Assembly: GCF_055900595.2 (NCBI RefSeq)
Contig: NZ_CM148325.1
Length of the DNA: 64,000 bases
Direction: 5' to 3' (one strand)
Shown here: one piece after another, positions 11,497-11,868 of the stretch
Numbering within the stretch: position 1 is the stretch's first letter
Layout: each line of letters begins with the position of its first letter
Notes under the pieces: model-generated
What the model was told of the DNA's origin: nothing
The model's input: the letters and a program-made list of their open reading frames with translations, nothing else
Database searches by the model: none
Position numbers and translations under genes: made by a program

Positions 11497-11582
11497 TTTC
11501 AACGCCATCAAAACATTGACTTTTATCGCCGTAGCCTTTTCAATAAAGGTCTTTTGAAAAGTACCAAAAGGTAACGCAAGCA

Positions 11583-11627
11583 ATGAATGCTGCTATTTTC
11601 CGCTTCTTTTTTTACTTTAGCACCTGA
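11583..11627 (+). CDS. pheM: pheST operon leader peptide (14 aa, Phe-rich)
   Basis: ATG AAT GCT GCT ATT TTC CGC TTC TTT TTT TAC TTT AGC ACC TGA = [14 protein letters not shown]; 5 Phe codons in 14. Confidence 0.85.
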
Positions 11628-11674
11628 CTCCAGGAGGCTAGCGCGTGAGAAGAGAAACGGAAAACAGCGCCTGA

Positions 11675-11699
11675 AAGCCTCCCAGTGGAGGCTTTTTTT
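11675..11699 (+). terminator. pheST attenuator terminator
   Basis: AAGCCTCC-CAGT-GGAGGCTT hairpin followed by TTTTTTT, downstream of leader peptide. Confidence 0.8.
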
Positions 11700-11868
11700 G
11701 TATGCGCGTTTTGAAAAATAAAAAGCCTGTCTCATCAGGCGTAATTGTCGCAGCCAGTCTGGGCACGGCCAGCGCGGAGAAACCGGAGCGTACTTAAGTA
11801 CGTGAGGATTTCGAGCACTGCCCGGGACCAAAATGGCAAGTAAAATAGCCTGATGGGATAGGCTCTAA

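Follow-up and report, generated by a model that had tools for sequence, protein, structure and literature searches.

How is expression of phenylalanyl-tRNA synthetase controlled at this locus, and does the interval between rplT and pheS hold the RNA that exerts the control? An earlier note made from the bare sequence had proposed that a short ORF rich in Phe codons, followed by a GC-rich hairpin and a run of seven U residues, forms a classical transcription attenuation arrangement for pheST. We conclude that the site is almost certainly the attenuator through which the ribosome controls transcription of the E. coli pheST-ihfA operon. The pheM attenuator is already well known, being described as such in PMC5371410 and PMC9291695, and there is nothing new in the attenuator itself. 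The locus serves instead as a positive control: a known attenuator was correctly recognized from raw sequence, and all of its textbook elements can be recovered computationally.

Genomic context and the PheM leader peptide

The DNA analyzed is a stretch of 64,000 nt (the window), which, judged from its sequence, is the thrS-infC-rpmI-rplT-pheM-pheS-pheT-ihfA region of E. coli. A 601-nt query around the leader finds several complete E. coli chromosomes with 100% identity and has matches in 5425 of 5426 genomes. In the best-matching chromosome, the RefSeq features between rplT and pheS are "pheM: pheST operon leader peptide PheM" and "Phe leader region", and K-12 carries its pheM (b1715) in the equivalent location. 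The K-12 peptide, its pairing segments (1:2, 2:3 and 3:4, described below) and the 328-nt distance from the leader ATG to the pheS ATG are identical to those found here. Across positions 11400-12000, the window differs from K-12 (locus L122) by 9 substitutions in 601 nt. Six of these fall inside a 147-bp repeat downstream of the leader, so that divergence is about 4% in the repeat versus about 0.7% elsewhere. The only difference within the attenuator is at 11628 (C here, A in K-12), a position that is unpaired in the 1:2 fold; position 11559, upstream of the Shine-Dalgarno sequence of the leader ORF, also differs.

The gene upstream of the leader, identified by its ORF and annotation, is rplT (ribosomal protein L20; 11104..11460, plus strand). 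It is followed by a hairpin, AAGAGGGAG / CUCCCUCUU, and then a broken U tract (11470..11499, plus strand), which was read from the sequence and probably acts as the rplT terminator. The portion AGAGGGAGC...CTCCCTC is kept across 110 upstream regions. This hairpin presumably separates the rplT transcript from the pheM promoter, for which a probable candidate lies at 11516..11544 on the plus strand (-35 element TTGACT at 11516-11521, a 17-nt spacer, and -10 element TTCAAT at 11539-11544). Conservation of the candidate promoter across species is only partial, and a consensus promoter scanner did not pick it up.

Downstream on the plus strand, and likewise identified by ORF and annotation, are the first regulated gene, pheS (phenylalanine--tRNA ligase alpha subunit; 11911..12894), then pheT (beta subunit; 12909..15296) and ihfA (15301-15600). 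The translation-initiation region of pheS (11872..11910, plus strand) is conserved and contains a hairpin, GUGUC-N6-GACAC, at 11882-11897 and a GAGGA Shine-Dalgarno sequence at 11901-11905. The roughly 40 nt that precede pheS have a common arrangement in E. coli, Salmonella, Pseudescherichia and Pseudocitrobacter: a small hairpin, then AUGAGGAAAACC, then the ATG. Another ATG, at 11899, is in frame with pheS, and the ORF listing consequently places the pheS start 12 nt too early.

The pheM ORF (11583..11627, plus strand) is present in both the RefSeq and the K-12 annotations. It begins with ATG at 11583, ends with UGA at 11625, and comprises 14 codons, five of which specify Phe, as the earlier note had stated. 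The Phe codons are TTC at 11598 and 11604 and TTT at 11607, 11610 and 11616, such that five of seven consecutive codons (11598-11618) are Phe. Its Shine-Dalgarno sequence is AAGG (11568..11571, plus strand), with AAGGTAAC 80-100% conserved across species. The peptide core FRFFFYFS[T/A] is found in nearly every Enterobacterales locus with sufficient upstream sequence. Two elements that characterize a leader-peptide attenuator are therefore in place, namely, an ORF with a start codon and a Shine-Dalgarno sequence upstream of the regulated gene, and a cluster of codons cognate to that gene (Phe codons ahead of Phe-tRNA synthetase).

Taken alone, Phe-rich short ORFs are not rare. In the 64-kb window, 7 short ORFs that start with ATG contain five or more Phe codons, versus 1.8 +/- 1.3 in dinucleotide shuffles. 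The others were rejected as leaders, being either contained in long ORFs in antisense orientation or overlapping the 3' end of the RprA sRNA. One that has 6 Phe codons (40330-40389, minus strand) overlaps the RprA 3' end and was judged to be a chance ORF. RprA itself gives an above-threshold Rfam match (40374-40481, minus strand), as do the rydB sRNA (46083-46141, plus strand) and STnc540 (15542-15700, plus strand), the last of which overlaps the 3' end of ihfA.

The minus strand carries the longest ORF of the interval (11523..11831; 102 aa, TTG start), and the length of this ORF is what could suggest that it is the real gene and that the plus-strand features are its by-products. We give this reading a negligible chance. 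The ORF has no Pfam match and is unannotated in both RefSeq and K-12, and its first 37 or so codons (11721-11831) lie in the 147-bp repeat, which at this site is missing from some E. coli and from all other genera examined. Species differ by indels of one or two bases within it, and the open minus-strand stretch over the leader varies from 20 to 120 codons across species. Moreover, the run of Phe codons becomes AAA/GAA in the reverse complement and is stop-free by construction. The earlier note had taken this ORF to be most likely spurious, and the evidence agrees. A plus-strand ORF in the +1 frame of the leader (11587-11721, 44 aa) is also spurious: it has no Pfam match, and its length is 17-29 aa across species.

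Alternative folds of the leader RNA

The leader region matches the Rfam family RF01859 (Phe_leader) at 11577-11701 with 74.4 bits, which exceeds the curated gathering score of 55 bits (model positions 1-125 of 125, E = 4.3e-12). This is the only match to that family in the 64-kb window. The minimum free energy (MFE) of the 123-nt leader is -52.2 kcal/mol (z = -6.0), and 0 of 200 shuffles fold as well.

Three helices make up the proposed switch; their energies are given for the isolated helices. The 1:2, or "protector", hairpin (11589..11670, plus strand) has an energy of -34.5 kcal/mol versus -16.3 +/- 2.8 for shuffles. Its 5' arm is segment 1 (11589-11626), which spans the Phe codons and the stop codon, and its 3' arm and apex form segment 2. 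The 3:4 helix, which is the intrinsic terminator (the attenuator proper; 11673..11699, plus strand; -14.9 kcal/mol), has a 10-pair stem at 11673-11696 and a U7 tract at 11693-11699. Its core, GCCUCC at 11677-11682, pairs with GGAGGC at 11687-11692 around a CAGU loop. The terminator thus stands between the leader ORF and the structural gene, as expected of an attenuator, and is within 2 nt of the GC-rich hairpin and U7 tract that had been placed at 11675-11699 in the earlier note. Finally, the 2:3 antiterminator (11633..11682, plus strand; -17.0 kcal/mol) joins 11633-11646 (GGAGGCUAG.GCGU) to 11667-11682 (GCGCCU...AGCCUCC). The pairings have the mutual relation that attenuation requires: 2:3 excludes 3:4, and 1:2 excludes 2:3 and overlaps the regulatory codons. 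The 1.1-kb region has 3 terminator-like sites versus 1.8 expected. Single pieces are not rare, but the combination of ORF, hairpin and terminator is far beyond chance.

The choice between termination and read-through is made while the 3' arm of the terminator has yet to be transcribed, and the equilibrium fold of the complete leader was therefore rejected as a test. Folding was instead performed on nascent RNA up to 11686, that is, before the terminator 3' arm, with a mask representing the ribosome. Such truncated folds approximate co-transcriptional folding. Without a ribosome, the 1:2 hairpin (11589-11670) forms and AGCCUCC is free, leaving the terminator able to form. When the ribosomal A site is on any of the five Phe codons (footprint to +12 or +15), the fold contains the 2:3 pairing (11633-11646 with 11667-11682; -17.0 to -17.2 kcal/mol), and GGAGGCU (11633-11639) is joined to AGCCUCC (11676-11682), which is the 5' arm of the terminator. 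When the ribosome is at the UGA at 11625, GGAGGCU is under the footprint, the antiterminator can no longer form, and segment 3 is unpaired once more. The prediction of alternative folds, which had been suggested as a check, thus yields mutually exclusive antiterminator and terminator hairpins in nascent RNA to 11686. These ribosome-dependent folds, the RefSeq annotation of pheM and the Rfam match together uphold the original reading of classical attenuation of pheST.

When the complete leader is folded to equilibrium with a ribosome mask in place, 14 of 15 ribosome positions retain the terminator. Since equilibrium folds almost always retain the terminator, the model depends on kinetic, co-transcriptional folding. 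In addition, the energy of the 2:3 pairing is not unusual in that it is reached by 271 of 2000 dinucleotide shuffles of segment 2 with segment 3 fixed, and 292 of 2000 segment-2 shuffles sequester as many terminator-arm bases as the observed antiterminator does. These properties, along with the strength and invariance of the terminator, are what would be expected if the hairpin and U7 tract, located between the rplT and pheS units, acted as a constitutive terminator or insulator, with no switch and with the pheST promoter downstream. However, rplT is already followed by a conserved putative terminator of its own (11470-11499), and the shortest spacers after the attenuator, at 40 nt, correspond to the pheS ribosome-binding region and leave no room for a promoter. 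The potential for antiterminator pairing is retained in 108 of 110 species, and attenuation of pheST in vivo has been reported (Springer et al. 1983, J Mol Biol 171:263, as cited in PMC9291695 and PMC5371410). We therefore regard a constitutive terminator as extremely improbable. Because the antiterminator is ordinary against shuffles in E. coli alone, one sequence cannot establish it, and comparative evidence was sought (see below).

One other feature of segment 2 was considered. A GTG at 11645 could start a 9-codon ORF 7 nt after a GGAGG that resembles a Shine-Dalgarno sequence. It was rejected, as most species have GTA at this position (consensus GCGCGTAAG).

The present analysis itself yields the ORF and the three helices, shows that the helices exclude one another and respond in silico to where the ribosome sits, and documents the conservation of these elements. 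An attenuation mechanism based on them would operate as follows. Transcription would start between the rplT terminator and the leader, and the nascent RNA would encode the 14-residue PheM. With no ribosome on the RNA, segment 1 would pair with segment 2, segment 3 would be free, 3:4 would form, and transcription would end in the U7 tract, roughly 210 nt short of pheS. If charged tRNA-Phe is plentiful, the ribosome should reach the UGA at 11625 and cover GGAGGCU; no antiterminator could then arise, and the terminator would form. If charged tRNA-Phe is scarce, the ribosome would stall on the Phe codons, masking segment 1 and leaving segment 2 free. In this stalled state, GGAGGCU would capture AGCCUCC as soon as the latter is made, and sequestration of the terminator 5' arm would permit read-through into pheS, pheT and ihfA. 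A low level of charged tRNA-Phe would in this way lead to more phenylalanyl-tRNA synthetase.

This organization resembles that of several known systems. The pheL leader of pheA likewise has a Phe-rich ORF within a long hairpin, followed by a GCCUCC...GGAGGC-U terminator, and is the basis of the RF01859 consensus, to which the pheM leader gives its full-length match. The consensus peptide of this family, M-K-N-I-L-F-F-F-A-F-F-F-T-F-P, resembles that of pheL, whereas the sequence of PheM differs, and the small apical hairpins also differ between the pheM leader and the family consensus. The two leaders differ as well in what they control, which is biosynthetic pheA for pheL and a tRNA synthetase for pheM. 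In Firmicutes, pheST is controlled by a T-box, in which uncharged tRNA-Phe raises synthetase expression through the choice between terminator and antiterminator, as in pheM. A T-box binds the tRNA directly, without a leader peptide or sensing by the ribosome, whereas the pheM leader uses both. No T-box family was matched in Rfam searches of the leader region or the 64-kb window. The closest logic is that of the trpL attenuator, with its four segments, its 1:2, 2:3 and 3:4 pairings, and its three ribosome-dependent outcomes, all of which pheM shares. The regulatory codons are Trp in trpL and Phe in pheM, and the 5' arm of the pheM antiterminator sits in the apex of the 1:2 hairpin.

An RNA polymerase pause in the leader would synchronize transcription with translation, as in trp. 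A pause with a half-life of about 25 s has been reported in the pheM leader; in vitro it is not lengthened by NusA, in which it is unlike the trpL and hisL pauses, and compensatory mutations in the stem do not rescue it (PMC9291695). Given that the pause is neither NusA dependent nor hairpin dependent in vitro, a trp-style role as pause hairpin would be hypothetical for 1:2.

A different role for the 1:2 hairpin is suggested by its sensitivity to RNase III. The hairpin is long and nearly perfect. In vitro, RNase III cuts inside the leader structure, and the message downstream of it is less stable in wild type than in an rnc mutant (PMC5371410). The K-12 cleavage coordinate in that study, 1799278, corresponds to window position 11575, which is 8 nt upstream of the leader ATG. 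The in vitro template corresponds to window positions 11245-12158 and contained the hairpin of the 147-bp repeat in addition to that of the attenuator. One might thus propose that 1:2 is primarily an element for RNase III processing and decay of the pheST mRNA and that the Phe-rich ORF is incidental. This proposal, which we consider very improbable, leaves unexplained a translatable ORF with a conserved Shine-Dalgarno sequence and an FRFFFYFS core across Enterobacterales, as well as the invariant terminator and the complementarity of GGAGGCU to the terminator arm. The authors of PMC5371410 themselves present the cleavage as turnover on top of attenuation, and therefore RNase III is best viewed as adding a layer to attenuation, and not as an alternative to it.

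Conservation across Enterobacterales

To compare leaders among species, 120 Enterobacterales loci were collected by scanning for a DNA pattern that encodes the conserved PheS N-terminus and is independent of the leader. The resulting alignment comprises 110 distinct Enterobacterales leader sequences. RF01859 was also used to score 12 diverse orthologues, including those of Yersinia, Photorhabdus, Morganella, Pectobacterium, Pantoea, Salmonella, Serratia, Budvicia, Erwinia and Limnobaculum, and all 12 passed the gathering score (60.6-83.7 bits).

In the alignment, the terminated fold has standard pairs in 93.5% of cells, versus 44-65% in slid controls. Changes on both sides of a pair occur in 7 pairs (40 cells), a cell count reached by 0 of 500 column shuffles. 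Six of these 7 compensated pairs belong to the outer helix of 1:2, in which they represent 6 of 18 pairs. The core of the terminator, GCCUCC/GGAGGC, is invariant or nearly so across the 110 species (98.3% of cells paired). Consequently, covariation neither supports nor contradicts the terminator core.

For the antiterminator, 90.6% of cells are paired versus 44-55% in slid controls across the 110 sequences, a comparison that is biased in favor of the antiterminator in that its structure was derived from one of the aligned sequences. The 2:3 pairing has no excess of covariation over column shuffles across these sequences, because both of its arms are almost invariant. A more telling observation than bulk pairing comes from the two positions of GGAGGCU that are unpaired in 1:2 and are constrained nonetheless. 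Of the 110 sequences, 103 have A or G opposite U at column 73, and 100 have G opposite C at column 74. This pattern of constraint matches what the antiterminator requires.

Each of the 110 leaders was also folded in the three ribosome states. With a stalled ribosome, at least 5 of the 6 GCCUCC bases are sequestered in 108 species. With no ribosome, at most 2 of these bases are paired in 93 species, and at least 3 are paired in the remaining 17. With the ribosome at the stop codon, at most 1 base is paired in 102 species. The strictest joint criterion over the three states is satisfied by 52 of the 110 species, the free states being noisier across species than the stalled state. The antiterminator as predicted is therefore supported by conserved complementarity and by modeled per-species folds, and not by covariation or single-sequence shuffles.

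In six species (L034, L060, L072, L076, L110 and L119), among them Cedecea, Enterobacter sp. Cy-643, Morganella, Lelliottia and an Enterobacterales MAG, the antiterminator is already the MFE structure without a ribosome. These predicted folds suggest either higher basal read-through in such species or limits of the energy model.

These results bear on how RNA candidates are evaluated in general. An experimentally established antiterminator fails both a single-sequence shuffle test and a covariation test, and becomes visible through ribosome-aware co-transcriptional folding and conserved complementarity. Given that a real attenuator yields these negative results, such outcomes are no ground for discarding candidates whose function is unknown.

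Repeats in the spacer between pheM and pheS

The 147-bp repeat mentioned earlier occupies 11719..11865, with boundaries accurate to about +/-2 nt. It is bounded by 17-bp terminal inverted repeats (11724-11740 and 11848-11864) that match at 15 of 17 positions, and it is possibly flanked by a TA duplication. As RNA, the repeat folds into one long hairpin (-68.5 kcal/mol, z = -5.95), and both of its terminal hairpins are terminator-like on the minus strand only. It lies within the read-through transcript and is not part of the attenuator.

The repeat is present at this site in 4781 of 5426 complete E. coli genomes (about 88%) and missing in about 12%. It is absent from the site in one E. coli locus (L023) and in Salmonella. 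The family is unannotated, and E. coli genomes carry a median of 5 copies of it. The leader ATG and pheS, 328 nt apart in the window, are about 182 nt apart in both Salmonella and one E. coli genome, with an overall range of 157-484 nt; the shorter E. coli spacing is explained by the missing 147-bp insertion. The part of the spacer that follows the terminator ranges from 40 to 365 nt, and the shortest examples (40-43 nt) have about the length of the conserved pheS initiation segment.

Attempts were made to assign the repeat to a known family. It may belong to the "RSA" family, whose members are about 152 bp long and number about 6 in K-12. The literature searched for this and other repeat families (Box C, IRU, BIME) gave no match, and the reviews consulted do not mention it. 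An assignment to ERIC was rejected, as a blastn search with the 127-bp E. coli ERIC consensus (taken from PMC2759123) gave only chance words of 7-8 nt. An Rfam match to the Xanthomonas sX9 RNA inside the repeat was likewise rejected as chance (27 bits versus a gathering score of 44, E = 0.038).

Authentic ERIC copies do occur in the pheM-pheS spacer of other organisms. They are found just after the terminator, in both orientations, in 22 other Enterobacterales species, from genera that include Citrobacter, Yersinia, Serratia, Photorhabdus, Kluyvera, Raoultella and Budvicia (for example, loci L002, L004, L010, L011, L015, L028, L097, L099, L101 and L108). Small repeats appear to have inserted into this spacer repeatedly. 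It is conceivable, and in our estimation unlikely, that the E. coli element, as one such hairpin-forming repeat, adds a strain-variable, post-attenuation layer to pheST expression, for example, by affecting mRNA stability or as a target of RNase III or RNase E. The repeat insertions in this spacer provide a minor lead on strain-variable 5'-UTR architecture in an essential operon.

A separate observation concerns the pheS locus of Yersinia pestis (L087), in which a match to the Ysr201 sRNA (positions 2809-2878 of that locus, minus strand; 104 bits) lies a few kb from the leader.
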